A DNA stretch of 64,000 bases, taken from positions 1 to 64,000 of the forward strand of contig OZ237738.1 of assembly GCA_965178125.1 (NCBI GenBank). Direction: 5' to 3'. How positions within the stretch are numbered: the stretch's first letter is position 1; each line of letters begins with the position of its first letter. Origin of the DNA: Bilabrum cf. latius. Taxonomy: Eukaryota. Of the stretch, positions 7,945 to 63,421 are shown piece by piece. The position numbers and the translations under genes are program-made. The notes beneath the pieces were generated by a model. The model saw only the letters and a list, made by a program, of their open reading frames with translations, ran no database searches and had not been told where the DNA came from.

Positions 7945-9425
7945 TCACTTGAAGCCCCTGAACCTGCGCTGCCCACCTGGTCTTGAGTCACCCTTACTAG
8001 TGGGATCCACGGGTAGAGTATCTAATCCGACTCCCTTGCTTGGAATAGCACGCCCTGCCTGCTGCCAGCGAGGCTACGCCTTGGATGGGGAGATGGAGCT
8101 GGGTAGTTGGGGTGGCGCTGCAGCCGATGCACCAAGACCGGAGTACCCGAACTGCCCGCGCGATGCTCCTCCAAGGAGGCTAGCCGCTTCTATTCCTTGC
8201 GCAAAACTGAGCAATTTCGCGTCGATTCCGCAAGCAGGTTGCACCCCAGTGCCTGGGGCTGCCTGCCTTGCAATGGTGGCAGTGCGCCAGGCCAACATGC
8301 ACCCAAGCAGGCCAGACAATGGGGCGACCAGCACCGTCGAGAAGGTGGCAGCCGGCTCTGATGGCTACTCTGCGCCGTCCTCAGAATCTCCGTCCTCGCT
8401 GGCAGAGTCACCATCAGCTGGGCTGCTAATGCCCGAGCTGCCTCCGCTGCCACCAGCGGCAGTGCCAGCTTCACCTCGCATGCCCACCAGCAGCTCACTG
8501 TTGCCCGCCAGGTCGGGGTCCACTTGCATGACGACAGTCTGGAAAGTTTCATTCGTCATATATGGAGCAGTGTATGCAAGGCTAGAGCAGCCCGCAGCTT
8601 TCCCCACGAGCCCAGTTTGAGTGAGCAGCTCCCGCTCGGCAGCCTGCTCGATCGTCTCTCCATAGTCGACGAGGCCGCCTGGCCACTCGAGGACCCTAGC
8701 CTGAGATGGAGGACTTATAGTCTCGAGTAGAACTACCATAGGACCGGATGATACAGTGCTTACTGCGCGAAGCGGTGCCACGATCGCGATTATGCTGACA
8801 GTGTCCGGCGAGTTTGGCTCGTGGTCGCACCGGGACACAACCTCCCACATGCCGCGCTGAACCGCACCAGAGTCGTGACTGCGATCTCATGAATGCAAAG
8901 AAGGGCACACAAATATGAAAGGCAACCTGTCGACCGTAGCACAATCATACGGCTGTGGGTGTATCCATCTTACCGAATCTGGAAGCCCACCTCGGAGCCG
9001 TGCAAGAACTGGCCCTACCAGACTGGTTTTGCGTGCAGTAGCGACAAAGTCGGAAGATGAATCGACCCAACGATGCCATATGGTCTCTACGGTAGCACTG
9101 TTGTATGCCTGTCGCCGGCTGCAACCACTCTCAGCTTCTCAAGCGTCGTCAGATCGCAAACTTTAGGATCCCCCTCTGCTTCGCTGCCGATGGATCTGTT
9201 TTCCTGGTTAGACTATGAACGATCTCTCTAGGCGCGAGTTGCAAGCACAATTCCGGCAACTACGCCCGCACTGGCTGCGATAATCACTCCAGTGTTTTCG
9301 AACTGCAGCAATCGAGTGATAAGCTTCACAGCATTCCTGGCTGCTGATACACCTCTCTACAATATAAAGTAGCTTTCAGTTTGCACATCTTTGCTATGCT
9401 TTGCTGCAGTCGTACTTACGGCCAT
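7945..9425 (-). CDS. Nudix hydrolase, ADP-ribose pyrophosphatase (NUDT5/YSA1)-like, with a degenerate Nudix box; intron 8879-8973; start approximate
   Basis: LEWPGGLVDYGETIEQAAERELLTQTGL motif, C-terminal IDAKLLSFAQGI; ORF pieces are in frame across TAGs; ends in TGA. Confidence 0.7.
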
Positions 9426-9547
9426 GCTCTTGTATCCCTTCAACGGGTCGCTTGGAATCTTCATCTTCTCAATTGGGTTGCAACCGCAAGTTGCCGGCCG
9501 TTGCTTCAAGTTGCCCGTGGACCTCTGCAGGGGCTTCTTTGTTTCGA

Positions 9548-11218
9548 ATGGGTTGCTTTGCATCTCAACCTCTACTATCATCGATAAGGGATAATAGTGC
9601 ACCAAGTATTGATGATGGCAGCTTGCATGCATCATCAGGACCCAATGACGCAGGTCTACAGGACGACGACACCACTACCGCCACACCAAGAGCACCAAGA
9701 GCGAGAAAAAGCGCTGCAATCGTCCCCTTGACCCCGGCGCAAGAGTCAATGCTAGATATTGTTGAGGAAACACCGGCATGCACTACGCAGAAAGCTCGAT
9801 ACAAAGCTGGATGCGTTGTGTGCTACGCGTACTGCAGGCATGCACTTAGAACATCTTGTTGTAACAAGAGCATGTGCGCGAGGTGCTTCGAGAGCATGGT
9901 TGTGTAGCATGTTGGATAGTTTGCGTGGGAGCATATGCTTGGAAGTGGACACGTGCCAGCGGATCGAACTGTCGTGCTTGTTCCAAAGGTGCCGGACCGT
10001 CGTGCAAGCCCAAGCAGTGGGTCTTGCCAAGATTTTGAGCACAGCAGGGGAGGGACCGTGACGGTAAGCGTAAACGAGTGGATGCAGGACTTGTTAGCTG
10101 GTATTCAAAACAGTTGCAATTCCCACGGTACAGCCACAATAGATTCGGTCGGAACTAGCGAGCTGCCAGCTGCGTTCCTTTCTGACAAAGCTGCGCGCAG
10201 ACTGCTATGCCCCATGTGTCGCTCTGCAGATGGATTTGGCATCAAGTTGTCAGAAACTGAGTGCTCGCAAAGCAGTTCAAAGACTGGTGCTAGCCCATCC
10301 TCAGGTGAAGCAGCTCCGTTGATGGCATCTGCTTCCGCCAGTGCCTCGTCCCCTCCTGCCGTGGACGCGATGTGGGCCCGTCCACGCCTGGCTCTCGGGC
10401 AGCACCGGTGTAGCTCAGAATCTACCGGCAGCACTGTAGCCGTGACGACTGAGTCTCCAGCCCCAGCTGGGTTTGGCGAGTGCGTGGGGGACGAGCGCCT
10501 GGAAAGAGCAAGGGCAAGGGCAACAGATCGAAGCAGTGGGAGGCCGGCGGTGCCTCGAGTAGAGCAAGGGCTCGGGATCAGGCAGCGTACGTGGGAAGGC
10601 CCAGGGAATGGGCTTGCAATCGGGCCTGCGCGGGAGCCTCGAAACCTTGGAGTGAGGCCCACATGCACATCCCGAGTAGCAATGGGAGTGGGGCGCGGGG
10701 ATCGACTTGGCTAGGCGTTGCAGGCTGGGAGGCATGGCACCTCGCAACAGAGGGCCGCGAGACAGCACAGCAGCACATCATCGCACTCTGAGCACTATGG
10801 TAGAGGAGCAGGGGGCTCTGCAGCTCGATCACCAACTGGCAACTCGACTGCCTCTCTGTCTACCGCCCAGCCCCGCACGGTGCGAGACACAGGTACTACT
10901 AGTAGAGACAGAGGTAGGTGCGAGGCTCTCAGCGCGGTGCTCCGGCGCCTGACACCAGCGTCCTCCACCGGCCCCGTCAGCGAGAGAGGGAGACGCACCC
11001 TACGAAACAGGGATAGAACTGAGTCGCCGAACGTGAACAGTGCGTCCGGTATTCGAGACACCGGCGATTCAGGTGGACAAGCCCCACTGCCCACCGGCAT
11101 GGAGCGGTTCGCCGACTCTGAGTCGCCTCGGGTGGATCCTGTGCGGCGACTGTTCACAGACAGCTCACTTACAGACTCTGTTCTAGGAGGAAAGCAGTCC
11201 GTAGTCGCCTGGTAGTGA
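9548..11218 (+). CDS. RING-type zinc finger protein (Sip5/DA2/GW2-like) with an N-terminal MGC acylation motif
   Basis: CVVC..SCCNKSMCARCF...CPMC; ORFs at 9401, 9935 and 10718 share one frame joined by TAGs; ends TAG-TGA. Confidence 0.65.
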
Positions 11219-11354
11219 TCATGCTAGTGGTGAAGGTTCAACCGAAGTTCGTGCGCCTGCCGGACGACAACGCCGGACGATATAAGCCCGCAATTACAAT
11301 CAGCAGGCAGTCCTACCGACACGGATTTGGCGCAGCCATCGTTACTGATTAAGA

Positions 11355-12701
11355 ATGATCGCTATGGCTTCAGTAGGATCAAAGTCGTGTGGTGCTCGCG
11401 TTTGGAATGAAAAAATGCCTGCTGCAATCGACCACGTGATTGATTCTCCGATAGGCCTGATATGCTGCTCTTCAACGATATTTGGCTCCATATGGGATGG
11501 TGCAATTAGTGTGTTAGACCCTTCAACGGGGGCTCCAACGTATCACGCTCATACAAGGAGTGGGACGACAACGTGTGCTTTCGCAAGCTCGTTTGTGGCA
11601 ACTGGGCAGGATAACGGGAGACTCACGGTAAGGATTACGGAGTAATTTTGTTCATATGTTCGTTTCTAAGTAATCAAGGTGTCGCTTTAGCTCCCCTTCT
11701 CCTTCTTCGGCTCACAGTTGCTGCGTCCACTGAAGGCTCAACGCGGCCGATCCATTGGGACACTATCTGAAGTGAGCTGGTCCGACTGCCACGATGGTGC
11801 CATTGCTGGTATGGTATAGAGTAGTGAATCCATCATTACGGCGGGCAGAGATGGATATGTACAACTTCACGACGTGTCCTCGGGTGCGTTGAAGTGCACA
11901 AGCAAGCTGCTGGCCCACGGATCCGCTATCTCCGCTTGCTGTGAAAGCAGCACAAGTGGATTCAACGTAGTGACTGCTGCAAAAGACGGAAGCATAGCAG
12001 CATGGGATTTTAGGTCAAGTCGACCAGCTGCTGTTGCAGCCGCAAAGCTGACCTCCGCAGTTGCGAGCCTTGCGTTGTCATCTGAGTCGAGCTTAGGAGT
12101 ACTCGGTTGTGCGGACGGAACTGTCGGTATCGTGGATATGCGGTCATCTCTTCTTCCGGCAGCGAGCTGTAAGTTGCATGGTGGTTTGGTCGGAGCTGTA
12201 GCTATCAGGCCGAGCTCACGGGCTGGGGCTGCAGGACGGGTAGCATCAGCTGGTGATGACGGCAAAGTCCTGCTTTGGGATGTAAACGGAATGATGCAGT
12301 CTACAGATGAGTCGATTGCAGCGGAGGCATCGTCCGGTGCTGCCGAGAGGGATGCTCTTGGCTTGCCGGCCCGCAAGGCAACGGCTGCCAGTGGAGCAGA
12401 GCCACAGGCAGTCGCGAAGGTGCACGGAGGTGGGGAGGGTGAGGGCGACCCGGGCATTGATAGTGGCTCTGAGGAAGAAGCTGCCGAAGAAGGTGAGCCC
12501 GTGGGGGCGCAGCTCGGGCCATCTCGGGGCGGTCCATCCTACACATGTCAGGCAGCGAGCCGGGTGACCGCTGCTGCCGGAAAGCCCGTGCAGGTGGGTG
12601 AGACACACCCAGACTACGTCCGTGCACTGGCTTGGGTGGGCCCTGAAGCACTCTGGACAGGTTGCTGGGACAGTACAGTGAGGCTGTTTGATGTGCAGTG
12701 A
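11355..12701 (+). CDS. WD40-repeat protein, WDR77/MEP50-like; intron 11628-11717
   Basis: WD repeats (AAWD, LLWD), N-terminal SSTIFGSIWDG, C-terminal HPDYVRALAW..TGCWD; one internal TAG; ends in TGA. Confidence 0.7.
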
Positions 12702-21957: not shown

Positions 21958-23177
21958 ATGCGTGCAGTAAGTTCAGCAAGAAAGCTTGGGTATGGTCTGA
22001 GCAGGATTACAAGCAGACCGCGTCCTGCCATGAGCACAGCCCGAAGGTGGCAGTCGAATGGCAGACAGACCAGAACTAATTTAGGCATTGCAATTGTTCC
22101 GTAGCAGAGTGCATGGGTAATTGAACGCTTCGGGAAGTACCACACAACGTTGGAACCCGGTATCAGCCTGTTGATCCCGGTAATCGATCGCATTTCTTAT
22201 GTGCACTCTCTCAAGGAAGAGGCTGTGCCGGTGCACGCGCAGACTGCTATCACTCGCGATAATGTTGCGATTACGATTGATGGAGTCCTCTATATCAAGA
22301 TTGTGGACGCCTACAAGGCCTCCTACATGGTGAGCAGCACATACTGTCCTCGTGCCTAGTGCCGCTATTGTAGGTTGATATGTCATTGAATTAATCCATC
22401 CTCAGACATCGTTTTAAATATATGCAGGTAGAGGATCCACACTTTGCGGTCACACAACTGGCCCAAACGACGATGCGGTCTGAGCTTGGCAAACTAACAA
22501 TGGACCAAGCGTTTCAAGAGAGAGACGCGCTGAACCACGCAATCGTGCGTTCAATCAACGAAGCAGCGATGACTTGGGGTATTGAGTGCCTTCGGTACGA
22601 GATTCGCGATATTGCTCCTCCACAGAGCATCCGCATCGCGATGGACATGCAAGCCGAAGCTGAGCGCAGGAAGCGGGCAGAGATCCTTGAATCGGAGGGC
22701 ACGAGGGAGGCCGCCATCAACACAGCACAAGGAGAGCAGCAGGCAACGCAGCTCAGAGCCCAAGGCGAAGCTTCTGCGATCGTAGCAAAGGCCAAGGCGA
22801 CTGCAGAGGGTGTTGAGCGGCTCGCCCGTGCCATGCGCACAAGCGGCGGGCAAGAGGCCGTGTCTCTACGTATTGCGGAGCAGTACGTGTCTGCGTTCGG
22901 AAGGATTGCCTAGAAGGGCAACACCATCATGCTCCCCGGCAACGCATCTGATGCGGCGTCTATGGTTGCCCAGGCAATGTCTGTGTACAAGTCTATCCGC
23001 TCGCAGCACCCGAAGCATGCGGATGACAAGGGCATGTCCAGCGAGGGCCCAGCCGATGTCGGCATGCCCGAGCTGGAGGACTTTTTGGAGGACAGGTCAG
23101 CGGAGAAAGACACTAGCGACGATCGGGAGTGGGACGAGCCGAGTGTGGCAAAGGGGTTTAAGCCCAAGCCATTCTGA
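21958..23177 (+). CDS. STOML2: Stomatin-like protein 2 (SPFH/Band 7, mitochondrial); intron 22330-22427
   Basis: IVP*QSAWVIERFGKY, AQTTMRSELGK, MQAEAERRKRA, SLRIAEQYV; TAGs at 22102 and 22911; ends in TGA. Confidence 0.92.
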
Positions 23178-23374
23178 GCGAATGTGTGAGATTCCTACGG
23201 CAGGACTTCAGCGCGCCCCCGTTGCTGGGTGATTGACTGCACAGGTTTCAATTCTGAACACAGGGACAACTGTTCCAGTTGTAGTTCCACGTCATGAGCG
23301 ACTTTACTCAGATCAATGACACAAGTTTCCCGCTCGGTGCCTACCCGGTATCCAGAGCCGGCTACTGCCCAGCA

Positions 23375-27742: not shown

Positions 27743-27911
27743 GCCTGCGAGGGCAAACGTCAGGTCAACAAGGGTGAACCGCCCAGACACCGCAGCCAGC
27801 GTCGCCGGCGGCGACAAGTTCCGCAGTCCGGTTTCAACTTGCACAGGTGGAGACTGAGGGTGGCAGTTTGCAAGAGGTCATACACAACGCGCTGAACTTT
27901 CAAGTAGGAGA

Positions 27912-41221: not shown

Positions 41222-41321
41222 GGCGTTGAGAGCATGAACAGACTGTACAAGATCGTATCTTTGCAAATCACCCCTTATTTAATTGAGCCATCCGACCAAA
41301 CCATGCAGCGCTTAAACACAC

Positions 41322-46657: not shown

Positions 46658-46972
46658 AATACCAGACAGTCTTACAGTAATGTTATTATATGCCTTTTGA
46701 TTCTAGTAGAATCTTTACTGACGGGCAATAACAGCTGTAGTGCAATGCAGCGAACTTAATGAAGAAGGTTCGTTCGCTTGGCGCGATTTTCACATTTTTC
46801 CAGATGCCTGTCACGTCTGCAGGCGCATAAGAGTGGAAAATTGCTCGTAGTTATTCTGAATTATAATTATTCAAGCAGGCGCAGGGCCATTCAATTCTGC
46901 TGAATTGTATTGCTACTAGAACCTGTAGTGCTTCAGCAATCCGCCTAAACACCAAGTTCTTGTGCTTGAGAA

Positions 46973-48756: not shown

Positions 48757-51276
48757 TCAGTGGCACCCAGTCCTGGTCAGGTCTGCCGCCAAGCAGAAAT
48801 GGTCAGAGCCGAACCCGCACTCAGGCGCTGGCAGCCCGCCCAGCCCGCCACGGTCGCGGCGACCAGCGATGGCGCGTAGATCAGGGTAGGCGGGCAGCTC
48901 CAACCGGCTCACGGGCGCCAAAGCAGCTTCACAGAATATGTAGTCCACGGCTGCGACGATGGTGGCAGTCAGCTGTGTGGCGGCGGGCTCGTTGGTACCT
49001 GATCGGGGCACTCGCGTGCCAGCGGCGTACACCGAGGACAGCCCCGCCCCTGGCTGGTTGAGGCCGCTGTCTAGAGACTCCGGGACGGAATCTGGTCGCA
49101 AGCCAGACACAAGTGCGTGAGTGACAGCCATGTCGCTGGGAAAGGATCGCCTCAGGCCTGTCACCAGCAACTCGGGGCGAAACGGCAGCAGCTCTGCAGC
49201 AGGCAACCCCAGCGCAACGCGCGGTGACAGTGAATGTGGTGTGGTGCTGCAACCGCTGCTCCTGCTTGCTGCAGCAATTCCGGGTAGTTCCGCAGAGGCC
49301 TTCGCTTTCGCGTGCTTGGAAACCGCTGAAATACCGCTGTCACGCGAGAGGCCCACGCCTTCCTGTCGCTTCGCAGACTCCATCTCAAGCCCGTGGCTGC
49401 CCTTTGAGGCAGCTCCGGTTGTACCACCTGCCTCGAATCTCTCTGAATCGGCAGCCAGCAAGCTTGCAGAGAACTATGCGACCCGCCCCACGTCTGGGCG
49501 ATACGGAGGATGCACAGCTGTGCAGCCTGGGCGGACAGCCATAGAGGAAGGCAGAACACCTGCACCTGCACCTGCACCTGCACCTGCACCTGCACCTGCA
49601 CCTGCACCTGCACCTGCACCTGCACCTGCACCTGCACCTGCACCTGCACCTGCACCTTCATCTGCACCTGCACCTTCATCTGCAGGCGCATGTGCATGGC
49701 TGCCGCTTGAGACGCTTGAAGGTGTGCCTATCGGTCCACTTTCAGCTGGCTCGTCGTCGCGTGGTATGCCCACAGCAGGATCTATAGGAGATGTAGAGCG
49801 CGGGTGTCTTGCTGCAGCACCACCCGTCGCAGCTTCTACCAGAGGTGCCCCTTCTACCAGAGGTGCCCCTTTGCCAGCAGACCCACTAGACCACGCAACT
49901 AGCAGCGCGCTTGTTTGCGTGCGTGCCTTTGCCTCTGGGTGCCAGCCCAAGCCCCCTCTCGATGCAGCGCGCAGCCCTTTCGCCCACTCCAGCCCAGGGG
50001 ACGAATATGCCCGCCCCTGCGCGCCTCCACCTCGCCCCCTGCCTCTCCCTCTCCCTCTCCCTCGACCCCTGCTCCGACTCGGGTGCCTCGCCCCCCGCGC
50101 TGCGATCCTCTCTGCCCCGTGCGGCAGTGCAGTGCACACTTCCAGCCGCCGCCGCATTTGAGCCCGGATAGGCTCGTACGCGATGTCCTCCGGCGAGCTT
50201 CCTCCCAGCACCAGGGCACACGCCCGCGGTGTGTCGAGGAGCCCTTCCGCACTGATCTTGCCACCACTGCCCCTGCTCCTGCTCCTGCTCCTGACTGCAC
50301 CTGGGGCCCTCCCATGACGCGATTCATGCGGCCTCAGTCCCGCCAGCTCCCTCACAGGCGACTGCGGGCTCGAGTTGAAGTCCCCGCAGAGCAGCACGGG
50401 GGCCTGCTGCGGGGAGAGGCCGAGGGCCAGCCGCATGGAGGCGGCCGCCTGCAGGATGAGGCACAGCTGGGCCAGCCGTACCTCGCCTCGACGGGGGTTA
50501 AATACGAGGTGCGTGTTGCAGACCAGCAGGTACTGCCGGGCATCGCTGCCACGAGCAGCCTCTGCCTCTCGAGCCCGCTTGCGAGGTCGGGTGACAGCGC
50601 AGGCGAGAGCGGGGACCCGCACGGTGGTGCTGCCGCGAGCAGATTTGTGCCTCAAATCCTGAAGCAGAAGCAGCTGGCACCGCTGAGGTTTGGCAGCGAG
50701 CAATCCCAGTCCGTCGACTTCGGCTGCACCTCGCCTTGATGCAGCCCTCGCGCGAGACTGCTTCGCTGAGGCTGCAATGGCCAAGCATCGAGAGGATCCT
50801 GTAGGTCCGCGTGCAGAGGCATGAGACGCAGTCCCGAGGGCTATGGTGCACATCGACTTCAAACGAAATCTATCTGGTCTCCAAAACACAGCCAGTCCAT
50901 CCTTCTTGCCATTCCTGGGGCAGAACTCAAACTCGTCCATCCCGAGCCCAGCAAGTCGGCTTTGCAGAGAATCGCCGCCTGTGCCAATCCCAGATTCCGG
51001 GAATTCCTAAAAGCAAGCTAAATCTGGTGCGACTGCTGCGATCTCGCCAACAATGGCAGCCTGTCTGGCGTGCCATGATAGGCTAGAGGGCGGCTTCCAC
51101 GGGAAATGCCCAGGCTCAATGTTCGAAGGTGCTAGAATATTGTACGATAGCACTCGAGTAGCTGAAAGGCCTTGGTCAACTCGATTGCATGGCAACCATT
51201 CCCTCGACAGCGAGTTCACACCAGCAGGCCGCGAGGCACCAATCGTATCGGTTGCGAATCGCCTCCTGCCACGCAT
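48757..51276 (-). CDS. Angel/CCR4-like EEP-family phosphatase/nuclease
   Basis: VLSYNILA, DLACF*E, NTHLVFNPRRGEVRLAQL, LCGDFNS, GSDH; ends in TGA. Confidence 0.88.
49558..49655. repeat. (CCTGCA)n microsatellite encoding poly-GA in the Angel protein
   Basis: About 16 perfect hexamers. Confidence 0.9.
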
Positions 51277-51428
51277 ACAAAAATCCTTGGTATTTTAATG
51301 TTCACACTAGCATCCTCTTCGCAATCTAAGATTATCGTTCTTTTCGGAGCGAGTGCTGTGTGATGACGAGCGGAGACTTGGCGGTTGACGACTGGCAGTC
51401 AAGCATTTTTCTCGTCTGCGTTGCAACC

Positions 51429-52815
51429 ATGGCTGGCGTAGGGGCTCCACCGGCCGGTGGTTCAGCAGAACCAACCTATGGAGAGACAGTCGGTGCTCTG
51501 AGATCGTACTTGACAGCTCCTGGAACGATGCAGGCGGCCTCAAGCACCGTGAAGCTTACTTGCACTCATTCAAACTTGAAGCAGAGAATCATGGAGCTGA
51601 GGTTCGATATGCATGAAACCATCAAAAGCGTCAAAGACACATTGTACACGTACAACGGGACAAGCCCTGGCATGATGGAACTGCGGCTGCTCCGTGGGGG
51701 CACCCTCGTGAGTGGGGCCGTGGCATTCGATGCTCCCGGCACGTATTCTGAAACTCCGCAGAGTTTTGCGATGATCCCCAAGATAACTCCCGGTTCATAA
51801 CTTTTCCCGATCGCTCGAGCTATTGCAGGTGGCGAAGCTGCTGGATTCGACCAAGAAGCTCGGCTTCTACAGCCCGCAGGACGGCGATCAGTTGCACGTG
51901 GTAGATGTGGACCCTTCATCGCTCAGTAGGGACGGGGGCTTGGACGATATCTCATAGGTCAAGAAGTACGTCATGTCGGACGAAGACTACGAGCGCCGGC
52001 CCAACACAATCCGGGCGTGGATCAAGGACCAGAAAAAGAAGGACCCGACGTTCACCCTCAAGAGGCACCTCAAGAATCACGAGCGGCAGCAGCGGTACAA
52101 GGCGGTGCTCAAGCAGGTGCAGGCTGCTGGGGTGGATGACCCCGAGGCCGTTGCGATGGCCGTCGTGGAGCGCGAGATGGGCCCCGAGCTCAGTGAGGAG
52201 GACCTCAAGAAGTGGGACGACGAGGCCTGCGTGGGGCACCTGACGATGGGCGCCAGGTGCGAGGTGGAGCCGGGGGAGAGGAGGGGCGCCATTGCCTTCC
52301 TGGGCAAGGTGGAGGGCAAGCGCGGGTACTGGGCGGGGGTCAAGCTGGACGAGCCCTTCGGCAAGGGGGACGGCTCGCACGGGGACAAGCGCTACTTTGA
52401 GGCAGAGCCCAAGTACGGGGTGTTCGTGCGGGGGGAGCGCGTCAAGTGCGGGGATTACCCTCCCTTGGCGGATGCTGAGCTGGCGGAGATCATGGGGGAG
52501 GCAGGGGCGGCTCCCGCGGACGCATCGGAAGGGGGCGCCGGGGACGGTGCAGACTCGGGCGCAGCGGGCGGCAGCTCGGGGCCCGTCGCAGAAACCAAGG
52601 AGGACGGGGAGGAGGCAAAGGGGCCAGCGGCAGGGATCAGTGCGCCTAGCACTGTGTAGGCCATGGGAACAGGAGGTGCAGGGGCAGGAGAGGGGGAGGG
52701 GGCGGGGGAAGGAGCTTCCGAGCGGCGCGTGGGTGGCATGCTTCGTGTGGGCAGGCGCCGGCTGGATGACGAGGAGTTGGCCGACTACGATGATGAGGAT
52801 GACGACGAGCTGTGA
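51429..52815 (+). CDS. TBCB: Tubulin-folding cofactor B (UBL plus CAP-Gly); intron 51708-51828
   Basis: LTCTHSNL..ELRF, LGFYSP.DG, DIS*VKKYVMSDEDY, WAGVKLDEPFGKGDGS, PKYGVFVR; acidic C-terminus DDEL then TGA. Confidence 0.93.
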
Positions 52816-52914: not shown

Positions 52915-53595
52915 TCAAAGGGCCTTCGTGTGACGGCCCTCGGCCACCAGGCGATCCAACTCCCAATCTGACTCGGATTCAGTTCCGCGCTTCAGAGTCC
53001 AAATCTCAACAGTTGTAAAGCCTAGCCTCCTTCCTGCCTTGCTGACCTTCCCAATGCACCGGATGCGACTGCCGACCTTGGCCGCTGACAGGAAGCTAGT
53101 TGATAGCTCCACGCTCACTCCAGCGCGGGTTGGATCGCGTGTCAGCAGCGCCAAAGTGCCCACTACATCCACTATTGTGCTTGTTGCGCCGCCGTGCAAG
53201 GTGCCGTACGCGTTTGCAAGGCGCTCTCGCACTTCTAACTCTACAACAGCGATACCTTTATCTGTCTGGATTCTCGTCACCTCCATGCCCTCCAACACCG
53301 AATCGAATCGCACCCCAGTGGTAGTAAATGAGCCAACTATTGCGTTCACGCCGAGGCGCTTCACTCTATCAATGAAGCTTTCCGGAGTCGAATCAAGATC
53401 GCTACTTGTAGAAACTTCTCTAGGCGAACCAGCAGATGCTGATGTCGAGCATGACGCAATATACGTCGCTGGCAAGTGGGGATGATGCCCAGAAGCCGCT
53501 TGCGTCCGAACTGAGTGTACCACCCGATAGCTACTGCTGGTAAGGTGTCGGTGGATCCGAAGCAGTGTCTACCCAGCTATGCTAGACGGTTTCAT
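52915..53595 (-). CDS. ACOT13: Acyl-CoA thioesterase 13 / PaaI hot-dog thioesterase
   Basis: NAYGTLHGGATSTIVD, GVSVELSTSFL, AEGRHTK; N-terminal extension across one TAG; ends in TGA. Confidence 0.85.
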
Positions 53596-54846
53596 ACACC
53601 CAATATAGTCACCAAAGCCCCAGAAATGAATTCTCGTCAGATGTGTTACTAGCAACAAGATGATTTGCTTTGACTGGAGTTGGGAAGGAAGGATCAAGAG
53701 GACCTGTCAACGATTTCCGGGTTGAGCTTGATTGGAGTCTTCCGGAGGACGCGTAATAGATCGTTGAATGCGGCTTTTTGTCGTCCAAATGAAAAATTGT
53801 TGACGTAGTTATCCAGTGATACGCTTTCCAAGCTGCCAAATTTGGTCGAGGCGCTACCGTGGCTGGAAGCTGTCTCTCGAGCAAGTACTTCGTCACCCAT
53901 GCAGTGGCACGCTCCGGTACAGCTATGAACACTTCCATCCATGCAGTGGTCCGCTAAAAGTACGACTGGAAGAGCTTTGCTAGCATTCTAAGTTTATCGC
54001 ACGGCCACATGATCGGAAGCTGGGAAGTGGTGGGGGTGCAGGGACGTGCATGCCGTGCTCGATACTCTTCCTGTTCGAGGTCAAGCTGACGCGATTGGGC
54101 AGTAATACAGCACGAGTGATAGTGCTCGTGCGAATAGCATCTGGACGTGTCTGGACGGGCCGTGTGAGGGCAGCCTCAGCCCTGCCAACACCTGCCCACA
54201 GCAGCTCTGCGGAGACGATGGTGCTAGAGTCTACTAGGTTGCCGGTGCAACAAGCTCATCCTGCAGCCGCATGCGGCCCATCAGTGTGATCAGAATTGTG
54301 TTGTTCCCGTAGTCATCAGGGGCTTTCGAATCGGCCGCCCACTAGACCTTGGCCTAGGATCTACCAAGGCCGCGCAGGCGTACAGAAATACAGAAATACA
54401 TTGTTGGGTTAAGTTACCGAACCCGCCACAGATGCACCATATCTCAGGTGATCACCTGCAGCGGTAGGAGCCCTCATAAGAGGACTACAAGACCCCCGAC
54501 CCTTTCAGACCAAAGGCCCCCCATGTACCGGCCCTGATGTTGGGACCTCCCTTTGTCGCCTTCAAGCCCTCCTTCGCAGCAGTCCCGGAGCCTTTATTTC
54601 GGATATCCGTAGACACACAGGCATACTGCGTGGACCCGGCATTATGCGCGGTCCAGACCCACCACGGAGTGCCCCTCCAGCCTCCGACGTCACTTCCAGG
54701 ATCGTCCGGACTCGCGATCCCTCTGAGGGTCGAGCACGCACACAATCATGCTCGTCTCTGGAACTGTCAGCGTAAATATGTGAATAGTTCCGAGGCTCCC
54801 CCTCCTGGGAGTCTTCCCGAGCTCGGTGTCCCCGGGCCCGGCTGAT

Positions 54847-55151
54847 ATAGGTGGCACCAACGGTGCAGAAACCAATCGCCCTGCTCTCCAACAGGTAGAC
54901 CGGCGCCAAAGCATTAGATGCTAAGGCTAGGGCTTCAAAGAACCCATTTTCTCCACAAGGGGAGAAATCCCGTGCTAAAATGACAGTACGGGCGTCGGAA
55001 TAGGTGGCACCAACGGTGCAGAAACCAATCGCCCTGCTCTCCGGCAGGTAGACCGGCGCCAAAGCATTAGATGCTAAGACTAGGGCTTCAAAGAACCCAT
55101 TTTCTCCACAAGGGAAGAAATCCCGTGCTGAAATGACAGTACGGGCGTCGG
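54847..55151. repeat. 153-bp tandem duplication (2 copies, few substitutions)
   Basis: ATAGGTGGCACCAACGG...GGGCGTCGGA starts at 54847 and again at 55000. Confidence 0.9.
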
Positions 55152-55471
55152 AGGCGGTAAACACCTTCCCGACCGTTTGGTCGTAGACCTTCCCGCGCAC
55201 ATCGGCGAACGGGCCATAACCACTTCGCAGCCCCCACAGGGATCTCGAGTGGAATCGAGAGCTATTTAGCTCTTCTTCCGCTGCGCAGACAGGCGTCCGC
55301 ACTTTTGTTGTAGCGTGTGGTTTTGACCGCATTTGGCATCCACGGTGCTCCTCCAGATTGAAAAACATGCGTACAGGCCGGAGGATTGCGAGCCAGCTTC
55401 GATCTAGTCGGCTTGTAGGTTTTTTATGCAGCAGTTGCAAACCAGTGGTGGCAGCTACTTGTAGATTATAG

Positions 55472-56372
55472 GTAGTAACGTACTATAACTTCCCAAAAAC
55501 TGAGGAAAATGCAGATGACCTTGATGCCATCGTAAAATCGGGGAAGCGGGTTATTCGAGGACAGAGATTTTCTCTGTCTCTAAATGAGAAGAATGCCAAC
55601 AGCAAGGCAAGGGTATCGGGCTTCTTGCGACTGCACAACGGAGCCAGGCCTGTGCTGACAAAAGTGTACGCCCGCGAGTGCTATTCAAGACGCAGGCCTT
55701 TCATCGGCTTAAATAAGCATGCGGAGAGATTATTTGTTGACACAAGGCCAGGTGAGTTCGATACTGCCCGCAAAGCGCGCTGCTAGACTTGTTCTATGTT
55801 CATCCAATCCATATCTACTGCCAAATCCTAGTCTTTACACTGTCGCAGCATCTGGATTTCACAAGTGGAGAGAAGACTCAAGGGTTGATAAAGTCATGGA
55901 AGCCTTCGCAAAGGTCTTAAAAAATCCTGTGTACAAGCACGCTGTGGTGTACAACCCAGACGCCACGGTAGACAGGGATGCCGCTGCAGCAGCAGGGAAG
56001 GAAGGTTCGAATGACTACAGGCCGCCGGAGGTGAAGCCCGAGGATGAGGAGACATTTGCGGTATCGGTGCCTTCACAGGCAATCGGCTTGCGCCTAGCCG
56101 AAGAGCTCTACGGGGCCTTCTGCGAGCTCTTCCCCGAGGAGGAGCACACTGTGGAGCAGCACGAGACCCGCCGGGCCAACCGCAGCGAGAGGAGGAGGGT
56201 CGCCAAGGAGGCCAAGCACAGGCACATGCTCCGGATCATTGCCCAGCGCAAGGACTTGCTGCGCAAGGTGCCCCGTGGCTCGATCGACAAGTTCATCGAG
56301 CTTGATCGGCAGGGCCAGTTTGAGGACTCGCCTGTGGAGGGTGATGCGGGGGAGGAGGGAGCAAGGCAGTGA
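55472..56372 (+). CDS. Hypothetical spliced protein (5' end unresolved); probable intron 55752-55848
   Basis: Open frame VVTYYNFPK...DTRP joins in phase via GTGAGT..CGCAG to ASGFHKWRED...; ends in TGA. Confidence 0.45.
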
Positions 56373-56848
56373 GGGTATGAGTTGCACCTCTACAAGCCAT
56401 TGGTACAGTTGTGAAAACCTTTCATTTCACTGCAAATGGCCGCCAGCGGACACGCCCCCCACTCGCACTGCAATGCCACAGCTCGGGAGATGCCGGGAAG
56501 CGAGCACAGACCACCGACATGGCTTCAGGTGGCACAAATGATCTTTTGATGAGATAATAATTAATTGAGTCCATGATTGACTCGCCAGAGCACCACGTTC
56601 TTGAGGATTCACTGGGAAAAGCAAGTGTGTCGTTGAGTTCTCTGGACAAAGTACCGACGAAAACCGTGAACCGAGCAGCGTACGCAACAAACTTGTACGG
56701 TGCTGCATTTGATTTGCCAGCACTCTAGGCTCAAGTCGATGAAACGGATGCCTGGCGCAGCGCTAGGGAAACAACTATCACGGGCCCTGCAACGGCAACT
56801 GTGCGCCCTGTCGACGTGACAGCAACGATACTTGATATTTTGAATCTC

Positions 56849-58657
56849 ATGGAAACGTAGGGGCTCTATTTCACTAGGGTTGGGACAAAGCTTTCCTCAG
56901 AAGTATCAAAATGCGCTACGTCGCCCTACAAGCTGTCGATGAAGCTGCTGGCGTCATGGCCAACACAATTGCTTGCATCCACGGTTGCCGGGATCGCTAA
57001 TGAAGTGCGGCGAATCCTGCAATGCGCAGAATATATACCAAGTAGTGAATTAAACAACATTATCGCGGCATGCATGCGCCAGAAGGCCATAGGGCACTAG
57101 CAGGCTGCTGCTGGAGCAGGTGCTGACCAGCTGCAGCCGCTGCTGGGCAGCCACTTGGATCAAACAGCATGCGTTATCGCAGATGCTGATCCACTCCTAG
57201 AGGCCCGAAGTGATACGGCCGAATTCTTGCTCGATTCTGGCGGGGGCTCGCCTGGCAGAGCGTCAGTCGGATCCAAGCGGTCCAGGACCGGCAGTGCTGC
57301 TGCTGCTTCTGCTGCTGCTACTGCTGAGACAGCCGAAGAATCAGCGCCGAAGCGGCGCCGACGAGAACCGGCAGTGCGCCTGTTGTAGGCGTGGAGGCGA
57401 GAAGACCGGCACTGGCACCACCGCCTGCACTCCGCTGGAGCTGCCGTCAACCCGCGTGCGTTACCCCCGATGGGCCCTGACCCCAGGCTTGTGGCGCAGC
57501 TGGCCACGCGGGCGATGGCACTGGCAGACGTGCTGCTGGGGCTGGACGCGGCACGGCCTGAACAAGCTGTGCGGCGGGTGATGGATGCAATGGAGACCAT
57601 AGGAATGGAAGGGTCCGGGCAAGGCCCCGGTGTCTCGCGGGTGTGTGCCAGCTCCACCACTGCCGGCACTGGCGAGAAGCAGCTACCAGCGTCTTCCTCA
57701 TCTGCATCCTCTGCAACATCAACAGGACGCAATACAGCGCATGTGCAGTCGACTGGATCTGGGCCTGGGTATGACCCCGAGCTGGGGTCTCTCATTGCAG
57801 CTGCAATGGAGCAAGATGGACAACAGCAGGCCCAATCAATGGAGGAAGATGGGCCCCATCAGGCCCAATCAATGTAGGAAGATGGGCCCCATCAGGTTCA
57901 GACGGTGGCAAAGGCAGACCACAATCAGCAGCACGAACGGACGATGAAGCAACGAGAACCATCCGAGGTCGATCCGATTGAGCCCGTTCTCGCTGTTCCG
58001 GTCAGCAGTGCGTCATTGTCAGTCACGGGTATCGCGAGTGGACCGCCGCAGGCAGGCGCTGAAGGAAGCACCATCGCGCCCGGCTGTAGCAGTGCAAACA
58101 ATGCAGTTGCTCCCTCTGCGTTGAATACGCACCCACTCCCGTCCTTGTCCATCTCAGGCAGCGCCTAGTTCCACCAGGTGCGGCAGTCGTTGGGCGCGCC
58201 TGCCCGCGTGTGGCCACATGAGCAGGTGGCGCCAGTCAGACAGCTGTCGGAGTGGCTCTGGACGTCGGAAAGTGGAGTTCTGCTGCTGCATGAGTTCGCC
58301 GGTGCCACCTGCTGCCAGCTCCGAGTGGGCGCTCAGGTGGCAGTGCGCAGGGCAACTAGGAAGGGCGCATCCGGGCCTGTGTCTGTCGATGAGTGGGTGG
58401 GGCTGGCCGCGCTGGAGTGGCTCCGCTGGTTCGTGGCGATCTCAGCGGGGCTCAGAGGGGTCGGGTCGATCGGGAAGCTACCGAGTGCGTTTGTAGTTGC
58501 TCGAGCAGTGCTTGGGGTGGGCTCGCATGGAGCGGGCTCTCGTAGCGGGAAGGGTGGGAGGGGGGCAACGGTAGCAGCTTAGTCAGGTGCAAGTGGCCCC
58601 GAGCACGAGGGTCGCCCTGGGAGCCGGTAGGGCTTCATAGAGAAGGATGGCGATTGA
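56849..58657 (+). CDS. Hypothetical protein (~600 aa)
   Basis: ORFs at 57155, 57470, 57905 and 58178 share one frame joined by TAG; ends in TGA. Confidence 0.6.
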
Positions 58658-58689: not shown

Positions 58690-60990
58690 TCAAGTGGACT
58701 TGCCAACCGATGCGCCACCAGCCGCACTCGTGCCCGGAGGGGGAACAGCCGCGCCTGATGCCCTTTCCCTGCGGAACTCGGCCATCTTGGCGGCCCTGGC
58801 TCGCTTCCGATCACTCGTCAAAGGTCCCATTACAGCCCTGACTCTGTCTACATGACTCTCGGCGCCATCACTGGCAGCTGGAGCATGCGATGCCCGTGCA
58901 CCGCTGCTCACTGCGATTGGCCTCCTCCTCACGATGACTGCCAGGCACCCAATACCACCGTTATCCACCGGACGCGCACGCAGCACATCCAACCGTGGCT
59001 CGGCAGCGAGTGCATCCGCCAGAGCTCTTCCATTGGAGGTCAGCAACACAGCTCGGCCTGCCACAGGCTCACCGCTGGGACTTGAAGGAGGCCGCAGCGC
59101 TGTTGCAATGCACTGCACAGCCCGGGTATAGATGTGCTGCAGAGGATACTTGGACCTGCATCGATTGCCAAAGGGCAGGTCCACGAGCACCACGTCGATC
59201 GTACCCGGCCGCAAGGGCAGGCGCATCGCATCCCACAGACATCGGTCGAAGGGGTAGGGGTCTGGTTCACTGGCAGCTTCACCATTCGCTGAAGCTACTG
59301 CCGAAGAGGGGCATTTGCTGTCCGCTGCAGCCAGAGATGCAGGCTTGCTGGGCTTGCTGCCCCCCGCTGCAGACCTGGGCATCGCTTCGGGAGGGCACAG
59401 CGCCTTCAAGTCGAGCTCACCTGCCACCACCACGTAGCCTCGCATGCCTGCATGCACCGCATCAGAGACTCCACTGGCTGCTTCGACAGTGCCTCTCGAT
59501 CGGTGCCACGACCCGGACCCAGCCACCCGGTGCGCCTCCGCGGCGAGGTACCCTGCCCCACACATGCAGTCCAGCACCACATCCCCCGGCCCGGGGCGCG
59601 CCCACCGCAGCATTGTGTACGCGATGTTGCCTCGGAGCCCCACCTTGGACACAGGCAGGCGCACCGGTCGGGGGACAGCAGAGCCAGCTGTCTGCCTCCC
59701 CAGCAGGTGCTGCCTATGCTGGGCCTCCAGCATGCTGCCTCGGTGCAAGCCGATGCCTATGTGGATGCAGGTCCCCTCCACCACAGCCACCACCTCCATG
59801 TCAAACTCCTTCAGTGACACCGTCAAGGGTACCCCAAGAGAGGGGAACGGGACCTCTAGGGGCGATGCAAGCGCTGCGGGTGCACCTGGGCTAGGCAAGC
59901 CGGGGGAGGAGGCGAGGGCGAGGGCAGAGTATGCCCTGGATACTGCATCGCCGGTGGCTTGCGCAATCTGCACCGATGAGAGCTCTGTGACGAGCAGTGA
60001 TTCCTCATCAGTAGCGCCAGCAGCGGCAGCAGGTGGCTTGCAAGGGGCGCCTTCGGCCGCTTCACCGCTTGCTTCTCCCTGCACGGCATGCGGGGCGGAC
60101 TCTGCAGATGCAGAGGATCCGGTCCCAGCAGCGCGGCTCAACTTTGTGAATGGTTCGCCCGCCGCCTTCCCACCGCCCCTCTTCCTCTTCCTCTTCTTCC
60201 CACCACTGGCACTGGCAGCCCCCGCCGCGCCTCGCCCCCCTGCACCCCGCCTAGTGGTGGCCTTGACGGCTGTGGCCCGGAAGCGAACACCCATAACAGG
60301 GGGGGCTGCCTATGCCGCCCACCACGCCTTCATAGCACGCATCCACTGCTGCAGGTCACCTGGACCTGTCCACCCGTGAGTGGTGGCACTGCTAGTAGCA
60401 CGGGCACTCGAGGCGGAGGTGCTGCTGGCGGGCGGCGCGCCCGACCTCCCGCTTTGTGGTCCTGATTCGCCAGGACCGCGAGAAAGCAAGCTTGTTTCCG
60501 CTCCATGATCTGTGTGTGGATCGATACTACCCAATATAATACGGTCAACGTAGGCTCGATTACCACAAGAGGCCAATCCGCTGCTGCCAATGGTTCCGAA
60601 TACCCTGTTAGAACGCAGGCTCGCCGCATCCAAGACGGCACAATAATCCGCGTATGCATCATACACACAGGTAGACAAACTCCTTCCTAATCTTGGATCC
60701 AACGGCGAAATACCCTCAAAGAGCGAGCTTTCAGTGCGCTCTTGACCGAGTGCACCAGACATAACCCAACTGCACACACACTCAACAGATCGCAGGCTTG
60801 CGATGCGATAACGATCGGCACTTGATTCAAAATATATGCACGTGCGACCGCCATTCGCATGGCATTGCTAACCAGAAGTAGCGTCGTGCACTAGAATGCA
60901 AACCGGTTCTAGCAAAGGTTTTAAAGCCTGCTTGATTTCCTCTGCAGCGCACTGCTCACTACCCCTTGCAACAATACAGAAATACTTCAT
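58690..60990 (-). CDS. THUMP-domain RNA m2G methyltransferase (THUMPD3/Trm14-like)
   Basis: ARGSEQCAAEEI, LRSVE, FRATA, LRGNIAYTML, VLDCMCGAG, WDAMRLPL, VDLPFG; ends in TGA. Confidence 0.82.
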
Positions 60991-61249
60991 TCCGGCTGCC
61001 CGATAATCTCATTTCATTCTTGAAGGCTGGCCGCGTGTTGTTCTGGTCGTGCCGAGTTCAACCATCAAAATGCACTCAACAATCAACAAATATGATTTTG
61101 GCGTGACTCCATTTCGCGCTCCACTCCTAAAGACAGTGAGGCGAATTCACGCGACTAGACACGTCGCAAAGTAATTTGTGCTACTATTTAGTGATGCTAT
61201 AGAGCAGTCCTACTACGATACTGTCCTTAATGCCCCGCAGCTAGTCATC

Positions 61250-61900
61250 ATGATGAAAGTAATCGACGCCCCATCTGAGCCGGTCAAGACTGGTGTCCTG
61301 TACAAACAGGGAGGAACAGACGGCGGCCACAAGAATTGGAAACAGCGATTCTTTGTACTGACCGACCACCTTGCATACTATCCCAGTGGTGAGCCGGGCC
61401 TGGTGAACGTCAGCCGATGCATGAAGTATTATGTGATTGCTGCGCCATCGAGACACGAATGGTTCGTCCCTGCCACACTTCAATGAAACGCAGAAAGCCA
61501 CTATAAGGCTTCAAAATCGAGCGCTGCGGGAAGTAAGCCGCTCGACATCGTAAAGCTGGACGCGTACTTCGTTGCTCCAGTGGAAGGCAGCACGCAGTTC
61601 GAGTTCACAGTGCATGCGTATCCCAAGACTCTCGTGTGCCGAGCCAAGAACCAGGAAGAGATGCAGAGCTGGGTACAGGCCCTCATGGCTCCCATGCGGG
61701 TGCTACACCGCTCGGCCCGCGAGGTCAAGCTGGAGCGCAAGGCTCTGGTGGAGAAGATCGAGGAAGAGGCGCAGGCAGGAGTCCCCGTGTCCGGGGTGCC
61801 GCATGTCGTGCAGTCGTCCGTTGGGGACATGCTGAGGCCTATGCCAGCCGCAGGGGCCGCAGCTGGGGCAGGTGCCGCATCGGGGGCAGGTGCTTCTTGA
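61250..61900 (+). CDS. PH-domain protein; intron 61389-61493
   Basis: KTGVLYKQGG...KNWKQRFFVL..LAYY, AKNQEEMQSWVQAL; ends in TGA. Confidence 0.85.
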
Positions 61901-62034
61901 GGCGCACAATCCAATGGTTCTGGTCATTTTCTCGACCACGGCGTCCGGCTTAGTTCATTGAAAGGTGCATGCATGTACAAAAATACGCGTAGTCCATCCT
62001 GTGAATATAAGTCCAATAAAGCAACGCATGTCAA

Positions 62035-63421
62035 TTACTTGCGTTTTGGCCTGGTCTTTCTCCTCGCGGCCCCCGTCGCGCTAGAGGCACTAGCTGCCCC
62101 TCCACCTCGTCCTCGTCCTTGCCGAGTCTGCTCCCCGGTCGCACTCGAGCCTCGACCAGCCTTCCAACTATTCTGCGGCCCTCCATCCCTTGTGTCAAGT
62201 TCCTCATTCCCGGCCCCTCGCCCCTCAAGCCGGAAGTGGTTGATCAGCTCCGCCATGCGGCCCGCATTCATCTCGAGCCCCTGCAGCAGGCGCTGGCGGG
62301 GTCCACCTCCACCAGTGACCGGCGGGACACTGCTCGGATGCATCGGGTGCGAGGATTTGCTACTACTAGCACTGCGGCTGCTCGGCTGCTCCCCGCTCCC
62401 GCTGTCTGCTCCACCTGCCCCTGCCCTGTCACCATTCGCTTCACCCAAACCTGTAGCCTCTTCTACTCCGCCAGCAGACCGCTCCTCCCCATCAGCTCTG
62501 ACGTCCGCATCCCCCATTTCTTCCTCCTGTCCTGACCCTCCTTCCTCCTCGAGGTCAAGCCCGCCCAGACCACCGCTCTCGACACCCTCGAGGAGCATGT
62601 CAGCCAGCTGGCTGTACACGGTCTCACCCCCGCCTGGAGGAGGAAGAGGACTCGATGGGGACCCGCCCCCGCTACCCCCTGCGCTGCGATCATCCATGCT
62701 CCTGGCTCCTGCACTGAGAGGCGCGCTCGTCGGACTCCCCTGCCAGCCCCTGAGCAACCCGCTGCCGCCCGAGTCCCGTCGCACGCCCAGCGAAGTCTGG
62801 CCGACTCCAAACATCGCCCGGCGAGAGGCGTGTTGTGCTGATCCAAACGCGCTAGAAACGAACACTCTGCCTGTATCATTACTGCTGCCGCTCATATCCC
62901 GCCGCGGCCGCTTGCGGTGCGGCCCCAAAGCCTTTGGCAATGATTCTGCTTCGGTGCCTGGGCCTGCCCAGCCCGAGCTGCGGAGGGCAGTGTAGTCAGC
63001 CACAAGCTCCTAAATACCAGCAAGAGTTTTCTAGAGGTGGTCTGCGGCCGCCTCTCTGTTATTTCCCATGGCCACCAGCCTTTGCGCCTCCTCACGTTTC
63101 AAACGATGATAGTCCGTGAGAACATCCAGCAAGGACTAGGCTTGAGCAGCATTTCTAGGTAGGGCCGATGCATCTTTGGTCAGATCCAATGAGTCCACAA
63201 TCAGCTGCTAACAAGTTCTGTGAAACCCCTACGCATGCAAGAAAGAGTAGCACACCGAAAGCGCATGAAAGGACTGCGCACCTGCTTGCATTCTCGCAAG
63301 CAACGCAACGGCCTGCTCTCGTTAGCTGGCAGCAGAATCAATAGGAAAAGGAAAGTTTATGTAATCTCGGACCTGAATGGACCTCACCCTTCGTGCACTT
63401 TGAGGCAAGCAATTCGGCCAT
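62035..63421 (-). CDS. LisH-motif protein with a low-complexity tail; intron 63282-63387
   Basis: VCYSFLHA*GFHRTC*QL..SLLDVLTDYHRLKREE read with TAG=Q; basic C-terminus RRKTRPKRK; ends in TAA. Confidence 0.65.

Follow-up and report, generated by a model that had tools for sequence, protein, structure and literature searches.

How does the organism behind this stretch of DNA read the codon UAG? The question is raised by a window of 64,000 nucleotides (nt), meaning here the whole stretch that was analysed (contig OZ237738.1 of assembly GCA_965178125.1, positions 1 to 64,000), nearly all of whose protein-coding genes had been described, from the letters alone, as interrupted by in-frame TAG only, with the frame running on behind each interruption. 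We conclude with high confidence that the nuclear code of this organism assigns UAG to glutamine (Gln) and keeps UAA and UGA as stops, the layout of NCBI translation table 15. This is what the original prediction had proposed, and six independent lines of evidence agree with it: open reading frame statistics, spliced RNA, alignment columns conserved as Gln together with a likelihood computed across columns, a public protein fragment from a near-identical gene copy (P0350), a codon by codon comparison with a second species known from a metagenome contig (L001), and conserved protein C-termini.

The 17 main frames between 7,945 and 63,321 hold 130 in-frame TAG in 14,809 codons, with at least one in each of the 17. 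They run without frameshift and without in-frame TGA or TAA to a terminator that is TGA in 14 cases and TAA in three, which is the interruption pattern that had been foreseen. Additional to this count are two TAG in the tubulin cofactor B gene and one in exon 1 of the mitochondrial carrier (SLC25) gene. CAG occurs 383 times and CAA 189 times in the same 17 frames, TAG making up 18.5% of the Gln-type codons. With TAG taken as sense, the longest frame in 56 kb increases from 651 amino acids (aa) under the standard code to 2,691 aa, followed by frames of 2,660, 1,500 and 1,008 aa, while control read-through of TAA alone or TGA alone gives maxima of 655 and 731 aa. The gain with TAG greatly exceeds what chance would produce. 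The residues contained in frames of at least 300 aa number 5,921 for the standard code, 24,680 with TAG, 5,962 with TAA and 22,583 with TGA as sense; the last value reflects many chance extensions, none above 731 aa, TGA being the commonest stop triplet (on the plus strand of the window there are 207 TAA, 497 TAG and 757 TGA). All seven positions quoted for TAG in the original prediction do hold that triplet (CTA where the gene lies on the minus strand). The one at 47754 stands beside a poly-GQ tract, as described, within the codons CAG AGG TAG CGG CAG GGG CAG.

To which amino acid UAG corresponds is indicated by conserved columns. The proteins were translated with TAG as X and aligned to solved structures and then to deep homolog sets, comprising 120 sequences for tyrosyl-tRNA synthetase (TyrRS), 119 for stomatin-like protein 2 (STOML2) and 141 of 150 representatives for the tRNA 2-thiouridylase TRMU (two close fragments and sequences below 300 aa having been dropped). 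The TyrRS motif GGSDxWGN (TAG 42045) has Gln in 3/3 structures and 120/120 homologs, and the TRMU motif GKDxSYFL (TAG 40208) has it in 3/3 structures and 141/141 homologs. In the Angel/EEP nuclease-phosphatase, the TAG at 51007 occupies the Gln of the 'LQE' catalytic motif (CFxE), which is Gln in 4/4 solved chains from two proteins (ANGEL2 and three chains of PDE12). Family-conserved Gln had been claimed for all three of these sites and is confirmed. For STOML2 (IVPxQ, TAG 22102) the same claim holds in part: the residue is Gln in QmcA and in the majority of homologs (57 of 96), but Glu in 33 of the 96, so that the column is not invariant. The metagenome relative described below adds TyrRS columns in which its own TAG faces Gln in 114/119, 102/120 and 120/120 homologs. 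A Codetta-style log-likelihood over the 20 usable TAG columns ranks Gln first (+10.9, against −24.0 for Lys and −26.7 for Arg), and does so separately for the 7 columns of the window and the 13 of L001. As a control, the same procedure recovered the standard meaning of 61/61 sense codons (an earlier two-family version recovered 58/61).

Further evidence comes from relatives. An exhaustive HMMER search found P0350 (Logan, with an ENA twin in the same cluster), a 93-aa fragment identical to the window TRMU at 88 of 93 positions. It carries Q opposite the TAG at 41087 and ends immediately before the TAG at 41108; at this TAG position of the window, gene calling under the standard code thus gives Gln in a copy that is nearly identical. 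A second TRMU fragment, P0242, is 54% identical to that of the window (HMMER search), and its source contig is L001, a 14.7-kb metagenome contig of 53.6% guanine plus cytosine (GC). L001 contains four orthologs in the order and orientation seen at 31.4–46.7 kb of the window, with amino acid identities of 66% (2660-codon gene), 52% (TRMU), 56% (TyrRS) and 29% (1008-codon gene). Reading TAG as sense lengthens its longest frame from 408 to 2,320 aa, whereas TAA brings no gain. In 4,413 codons it has 52 in-frame TAG (32 of them in the ortholog of the 2660-codon gene) and no in-frame TAA or TGA, and its terminators are TGA in three genes and TAA in one.

Codons were compared between the two species only in columns with at least 5 of 10 flanking positions identical, which retains 25 of 55 window TAG and 38 of 52 L001 TAG. 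The 38 L001 codons face CAG 17 times, CAA 6, TAG 4, ATG 2 and nine other codons once each, that is CAG, CAA or TAG in 27 of 38 columns. In the opposite direction, the 25 window TAG face CAA 7 times, CAG 2, TAG 4, AAA 2 and ten codons once each. Window CAG faces Gln in 35 and TAG in 17 of 83 columns, and window CAA faces Gln in 7 and TAG in 6 of 23. Among control codons, a TAG partner occurs once for GAG and not at all for AAG, TAC, CTG, TGG and TCG. In its exchanges with CAG and CAA, TAG therefore behaves like a synonymous codon. Four sites carry TAG in both species, and the reassignment thus predates their split; to judge from these alignments, the code is common to a second, diverged species so far represented by a metagenome. 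A second metagenome locus, L002, is 25% identical to P0242 over residues 3–191 and is likely to be an unrelated MnmA-type gene.

We compared the window at 22,050–42,049 with contigs of a DNA run (X1) and of three RNA-like runs (X5, X6 and X7, which carry two organism labels and come from two studies; the four runs together come from three studies). X1 covers the whole 20-kb stretch as one piece and keeps four introns, whereas the contigs of X5, X6 and X7 skip these four GT..AG introns (98 nt in STOML2 and three of 111–122 nt in the mitogen-activated protein kinase (MAPK) gene) and so behave as spliced RNA. The introns defined in this way yield an open MAPK frame of 960 aa, from the ATG at 31,148 to TAA. 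All four runs show 0 differing letters and 0 insertions or deletions relative to the window over 20 kb, and the RNA pieces listed span 52 of the 57 in-frame TAG of this stretch. The only sequence joints are the four GT..AG introns, none of them at a TAG site. Hence editing of TAG, splicing-out of TAG and CAG/TAG miscalls, which had been named beforehand as outcomes that would refute the prediction, are contradicted by matching RNA contigs from three runs and are excluded as far as contigs show. In the same data, a high-depth contig (165.6, 21.7 and 24 in the three RNA runs) passes from 37,988 back to 35,368, with four additional letters at the join; this contig, matching 37,959–37,988 and 35,368–35,385, continues into unlike sequence and probably represents a different abundant transcript that has a short Glu/Lys-rich coiled-coil stretch in common with this region.

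Translation ends at the other two triplets. The 2660-codon proteins of the two species have their last 33 residues identical but one and end at TGA; the final 142 codons of this gene, all behind a late TAG, are conserved in L001. In TRMU, both species have TAG at one shared late site, and the tail from there to TGA is conserved. The two 1008-codon proteins finish with K(M/L)D at an aligned position, next to TGA in the window and next to TAA in L001. The ortholog pairs are thus conserved past late TAG codons and diverge directly after the terminator. A codon-usage score is highest in frame 0 behind the last TAG in 14/14 tails of at least 36 codons (for the NUDIX gene by 0.001 only), and the frame-0 coding score is negative in the 150 nt past 14 of 17 terminators. 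In L001, CAA is as common as CAG (79 versus 77), yet in-frame TAA numbers 0 versus 52 for TAG. In-frame TAA is absent from 14,809 codons in the window and from 4,413 in L001. TGA and TAA are therefore the stops. UGA is the main stop and UAA a minor stop, and both serve as terminators only.

Several observations weigh against a uniform reading of UAG as Gln, and we consider them together with the alternatives that they might favour. In the 2660-codon gene, the contigs of X5, X6 and X7 end at 38,939–38,968, about 16 nt before an in-frame TAG at 38,984 and about 440 nt before the TGA at 39,410, and RNA depth falls about tenfold beyond 38,968. The TRMU contigs end at 41,120 and 41,202, near two late TAG codons and short of the TGA at 41,219. 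Furthermore, TAG lies 1, 4 and 9 codons before TGA or TAA in 3 of 17 frames, where about 1.4 within 10 codons would be expected. Such features would suit a context-dependent UAG, read as Gln inside genes and as a terminator near mRNA 3′ ends, of the type known from Condylostoma, karyorelict ciliates, Blastocrithidia and Amoebophrya sp. ex Karlodinium veneficum (Kv). Contigs cannot locate RNA ends, however, and the tails past these contig ends are conserved in L001, including the 142 codons and the shared late TRMU site; the early ends probably arise from assembly or coverage in sequence that is GC-rich and of low complexity. Across the window, 6 of 17 frames have their last TAG no more than 46 codons ahead of the terminator (TAG density would give about 5.7 such frames), and frame-0 coding signal persists behind the last TAG. 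All 17 window frames and the four L001 orthologs end in TGA or TAA where conservation stops, and neither in-frame TGA or TAA nor any sign of TAG as a stop, as the Condylostoma, Blastocrithidia or Amoebophrya Kv type of code would have it, was seen. A context-dependent UAG is accordingly held to be highly improbable, although in a sample of about 20 genes and four orthologs occasional termination at TAG may occur. A code of the table 6 type, with UAA and UAG both Gln and UAA merely rare in a GC-rich genome, could appeal to TAA being the rarest stop triplet and to the joint change of UAA and UAG in nearly all known cases (PMC5304391, PMC11687900). Against this, TAA-only read-through extends the longest frame by four residues at most (651 to 655 aa), TAA ends 3 of 17 window frames and one of four L001 genes, the two members of one ortholog pair terminate differently, at TGA and at TAA, and in-frame TAA is absent beside 79 CAA in L001 and 189 in the window. 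The RNA contig of the 1500-codon gene, in addition, extends to 23297, only 78 nt beyond its TAA. We consider a table 6 code very improbable.

The residue assignment itself also meets contrary evidence, in that many TAG codons stand at columns where Gln is not the rule. Compared with structures, variable TAG columns read A/F/F, K/R/K, S, D/D/Y and C/A/A/A, the last being MAPK EALxHPY (29868), which had been proposed as Gln-compatible and is indeed a variable column; in the homolog sets, TAG columns are found with Lys in 95/119 (STOML2) and 74/120 (TyrRS), Gly in 68/119 and Phe in 112/119. Moreover, the codon comparison excludes unreliably aligned columns (30 of 55 window TAG and 14 of 52 in L001), and 12 of the 25 reliable window TAG face non-Gln codons in L001. 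Lys-rich and Glu-rich columns of this kind, and the assignment of UAG to Leu, Ser or Glu in other lineages (PMC11687900), might favour another residue (Glu, Lys, Leu, Ser, Tyr or pyrrolysine) or near-cognate read-through without a dedicated reassignment. Gln encoded by CAG or CAA nevertheless behaves alike, both in facing non-Gln codons and in its homolog columns (Leu 109/120, Asn 109/120 and Lys 96/119 in the same proteins), including the same Lys-rich and Glu-rich ones. The likelihood places Gln 34.9 nats above Lys and further above all others, five invariant or near-invariant Gln columns carry TAG, and CAG or CAA accounts for 32 of 55 pairings with a codon other than TAG, no other residue exceeding 4. 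Leaky read-through at 130 TAG over 17 of 17 frames would wreck expression. The chance that another residue or mere read-through is involved is thus rated as extremely small. Pyrrolysine was rejected as a candidate given TAG over all housekeeping genes and at Gln-equivalent positions, no search having been aimed at pyl genes. One column stands out: in the TyrRS motif VYVGxDPTA, both the window (42594, minus strand) and L001 (codon 99) have TAG where 112 of 119 homologs have Phe, which is read as a lineage-specific Phe-to-Gln change in a conserved, active-site-proximal motif.

Other contrary points concern the supporting data. The label of X5, X6 and X7 as RNA runs is a guess, their RNA nature resting on the intron joints, and the Q of P0350 opposite TAG 41087 is presumed to be encoded by CAG or CAA from the end of that fragment at the next TAG. 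For artefact or decay, in the form of CAG-to-TAG errors, RNA editing, TAG-containing mini-introns or a pseudogene block, no supporting point was found. Over 20 kb, the DNA run and the three RNA-like runs, which come from three studies, match the window base for base, joints are confined to the four GT..AG introns and absent from TAG sites, frameshifts and in-frame TGA or TAA are lacking, the genes are transcribed and spliced, and the proteins are conserved in a second species. The probability of such an origin is practically negligible. Finally, tRNA scans detected no tRNA gene of any kind in the window or L001.

By analogy with other UAG-decoding eukaryotes (PMC5304391), the assignment of UAG to Gln would require a tRNA-Gln with anticodon CUA, one base removed from the CUG isoacceptor, which would decode UAG and not UAA. 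A glutaminyl-tRNA synthetase (GlnRS) would have to accept this tRNA, and domain 1 of the release factor eRF1 would presumably no longer recognise UAG efficiently while keeping UAA and UGA, as known systems suggest (PMC5304391). An Rfam search of the window gave no match, and eRF1 is not among the genes of the window or L001.

The features of the window are collected in Table 1. Dense genes on both strands lie behind telomere tracts and arrays of 155-bp subtelomeric repeats (17.5, 7.5 and 3.7 copies) that alternate with them; this arrangement marks the window as a eukaryotic nuclear chromosome end, belonging to a GC-rich, intron-poor protist with a mitochondrial translation system. The chromosome end is more complex than a single telomere: (CCCTAA)n occurs in six or more tracts, each of 120–1006 bp, and the internal tracts suggest repeated healing or recombination of the chromosome end. 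Repeats of 34, 53 and 87 bp at 7615–7836 adjoin the first gene. GC skew is strongly negative in 1–8000, and GC content is 51–62% across the window and 55–62% from 7.9 kb on, where genes are tightly packed on both strands.

Table 1. Features of the 64,000-nt window, with the positions of in-frame TAG codons where given.
Feature	Position	Strand	Evidence and remarks
Chromosome end	1–7836	none	Tandem Repeats Finder
(CCCTAA)n telomere tracts	1–569, 1787–2135, 3353–3785, 5003–5560, 6204–6323, 6587–7592		Tandem Repeats Finder
NUDIX-domain gene frame	7945–8886	−	Pfam PF00293, E=1.5e-7; TAG 8365, 8074; TGA stop
616-codon frame, no Pfam family	9368–11218	+	4 in-frame TAG; TGA stop
WD40 beta-propeller gene frame	11670–12701	+	Pfam WD40 families; TAG 11688, 11817; TGA stop
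Vps8-like giant gene, 2691 codons	13498–21573	−	TPR_Vps8 E=9.8e-14, Beta-prop_VPS8; 31 TAG; TGA stop
Stomatin-like protein 2 (STOML2), two exons	22030–23177	+	Band_7, Band_7_C; TAG 22102, 22911; TGA stop
STOML2 intron, 98 nt, GT..AG	about 22329–22427	+	joint in X5, X6, X7, not in DNA run X1
1500-codon frame, no Pfam family	23375–27877	−	14 in-frame TAG; TAA stop 23375–23377
ERK-type MAPK, 960 aa, four exons	27912–31148	−	Pfam Pkinase, PDB matches; TAG 29868, 30374; TAA stop
MAPK introns, GT..AG	30191–30312, 30575–30695, 30792–30902	−	RNA joints
2660-codon frame, no Pfam family	31430–39412	+	31 in-frame TAG; TGA stop; ortholog in L001
Mitochondrial-type tRNA 2-thiouridylase (TRMU/MnmA)	39578–41221	+	PF03054 E=8.8e-67, PDB; TAG 40208, 40787, 41087, 41108; TGA stop
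Bacterial/organellar-type TyrRS	41322–42818	−	PF00579 E=2.8e-67, PDB; TAG 42594, 42045, 41895, 41640, 41334; TGA stop
1008-codon frame, no Pfam family	43688–46714	−	12 in-frame TAG; TGA stop; ortholog in L001
Mitochondrial carrier (SLC25)	46973–48641	+	Mito_carr E=9.9e-53; TGA stop
SLC25 exon 1	ATG 46973	+	TAG 47042 (VGxPFD), then intron starting GT; exon 1/2 junction inferred from sequence
SLC25 main exon frame	47067–48641	+	TAG 47754 (beside poly-GQ tract), 47925
Angel/EEP-family nuclease-phosphatase	48757–51294	−	PF03372; ANGEL2, PDE12 PDB alignments; TAG 51007, 49474; TGA stop
Tubulin-folding cofactor B-like (Ubiquitin_2 + CAP-Gly), two frames/exons	51330–52815	+	PF14560, PF01302; TAG 51955, 52657
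4HBT thioesterase	52915–53706	−	PF03061; TAG 53569; TGA stop
443-codon frame, no Pfam family	54562–55893	−	internal duplication
698-codon frame, no Pfam family	56561–58657	+	8 in-frame TAG; TGA stop
RMKL-like (UPF0020) methyltransferase-domain gene	58690–61008	−	PF01170; TAG 60868, 60310; TGA stop
428-codon frame, no Pfam family	62035–63321	−	5 in-frame TAG; TAA stop

Pfam housekeeping domains become detectable in the window once TAG is read through, and Pfam has no family for seven large frames (616, 1500, 2660, 1008, 698, 428 and 443 codons). In the last of these, about 45 residues are duplicated internally almost without change (the copies include SDARTVI(S/L)ARDF(F/S)PCGENGFFEAL), and the frame may not be a real gene. 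No close relatives of TyrRS, TRMU or the Vps8-like core were present in protein collections; for the 1,071-aa Vps8-like core, a word-indexed search with 8,000 scored candidates found no relative at E ≤ 0.001. In the MAPK, the activation loop reads T-E-H (MTEHVVTRWYRSPE; window 30313–30574, minus strand) in place of the usual T-E-Y, and about 600 low-complexity residues extend the protein at its C-terminus.

Ciliates typically have a different telomere type and AT-rich or gene-sized macronuclear chromosomes, and the mitochondrion-related organelles of fornicates are not known to contain a genome. The organism is neither: a TTAGGG-type telomere on a long, gene-rich and GC-rich arm argues against a ciliate, and a mitochondrial-type TyrRS and TRMU, which imply a mitochondrial genome, argue against a fornicate. 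For STOML2, the named sequences that match best come from oomycetes, plants, Vitrella and a labyrinthulomycete (identity about 55–65%), and among solved structures the MAPK is closest to plant-type and ERK-type kinases. Single-gene STOML2 trees, drawn from 22 named and 17 unnamed of 119 matches, disagree: FastTree pairs the query with Vitrella, while IQ-TREE places it with unnamed sequences and then loosely with stramenopiles (ultrafast bootstrap, UFBoot, 56, 37 and 41). The earlier guess of a bicosoecid-like stramenopile is neither supported nor refuted by these trees, in which support does not exceed UFBoot 56. Three other candidates were considered, of which the aphelid and Amoebophrya were rejected. 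An aphelid (Amoeboaphelidium, with a reported UAR = Gln code) is at odds with TAA as a stop and with STOML2 relatives that are not opisthokonts. Membership in the alveolate MAPK2 group, suggested by the T-E-H loop, is not supported, the best solved matches being the ordinary ERK-type kinases MPK6, ERK5 and MPK4. Amoebophrya sp. Kv is AT-rich and has all three stops in frame (PMC12005148).

An independent reassignment in the lineage of the window is plausible. We lean slightly towards a fuller version of this, namely an independently evolved and undescribed UAG-to-Gln code belonging to a whole clade of at least two species, GC-rich and intron-poor, with mitochondria and TTAGGG telomeres, outside ciliates and fornicates and with TGA as the main stop. 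Full-text literature searches returned no report of a matching organism; most subscription journals lie outside their coverage, and prior publication is possible. The kind of code is known, and the lineage, the second species and the dominance of TGA appear to be new. If the weak stramenopile affinity is true, that supergroup would thereby gain what is, to our knowledge, its first non-canonical nuclear code.

In the evolution of nuclear codes, few events are as rare as a separation of UAG from UAA. With DNA and RNA runs publicly available and a diverged relative that has the same code, an additional lineage would make three questions directly accessible, namely by what means eRF1 tells UAG from UAA, what lets GlnRS accept a CUA anticodon, and what age and stability a code of this type has; the public runs that contain the window suggest that sequence data for further work exist. 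There is also a practical consequence, as standard-code gene callers shred this proteome. The public version of the window's STOML2 is a 163-aa fragment (P0121) cut at TAG (22395–23177 region), and public TRMU relatives exist only as fragments of 93, 103, 237 and 272 aa (P0350, P0242, P0392–P0394). Annotation and phylogenomics of this genome need table 15.

The code can be set beside several known systems. The UAR = Gln codes (table 6: many ciliates, hexamitin diplomonads, oxymonads, ulvophytes and Amoeboaphelidium) likewise turn a stop into Gln, probably through a comparable one-base change of a tRNA-Gln anticodon; they differ in that UAA is a stop in the window and never in frame. As against ciliates with a UAG-only change, the window is part of a long arm with at least 20 genes, a (TTAGGG)n telomere and 51–62% GC. 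Those ciliates, Protocruzia tuzeti and two phyllopharyngean lineages, resemble it in reading UAG as Gln and UAA not as Gln, their changes having recent independent origins within one group (McGowan et al. 2024, PMC11687900). UAG alone has become Leu in the rhizarian exLh and Ser in Scotinosphaera, and Leu or Ser also in some ciliates (cited or reported in PMC11687900); exLh and Scotinosphaera share the uncoupling of UAG from UAA with the window organism and differ from it in the residue, which is Gln here. Amoebophrya sp. ex Karlodinium veneficum is likewise a non-ciliate protist that keeps in-frame stops in its transcripts, but its genome is AT-rich, and TAA, TAG and TGA all occur in frame there and are read contextually, whereas the window has only TAG in frame (PMC12005148). 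PMC6733595 was rejected as a parallel, its codes being plastid codes. The closest likeness in the sense of a non-ciliate in which only UAG is reassigned, and to Gln, is Iotanema spirale (Metamonada: Fornicata), with UAA and UGA as stops and a proposed mechanism of a tRNA-Gln(CUA) derived from the CUG isoacceptor together with the eRF1 substitution T32G in the GTS motif (Panek et al. 2017, PMC5304391). In Iotanema the primary terminator is UAA (PMC5304391), whereas TGA ends 14 of 17 frames in the window and three of four genes in L001. Iotanema differs furthermore from the organism studied here in that the window encodes a mitochondrial-type TyrRS, TRMU, SLC25 and STOML2 at a GC content of 51–62%.

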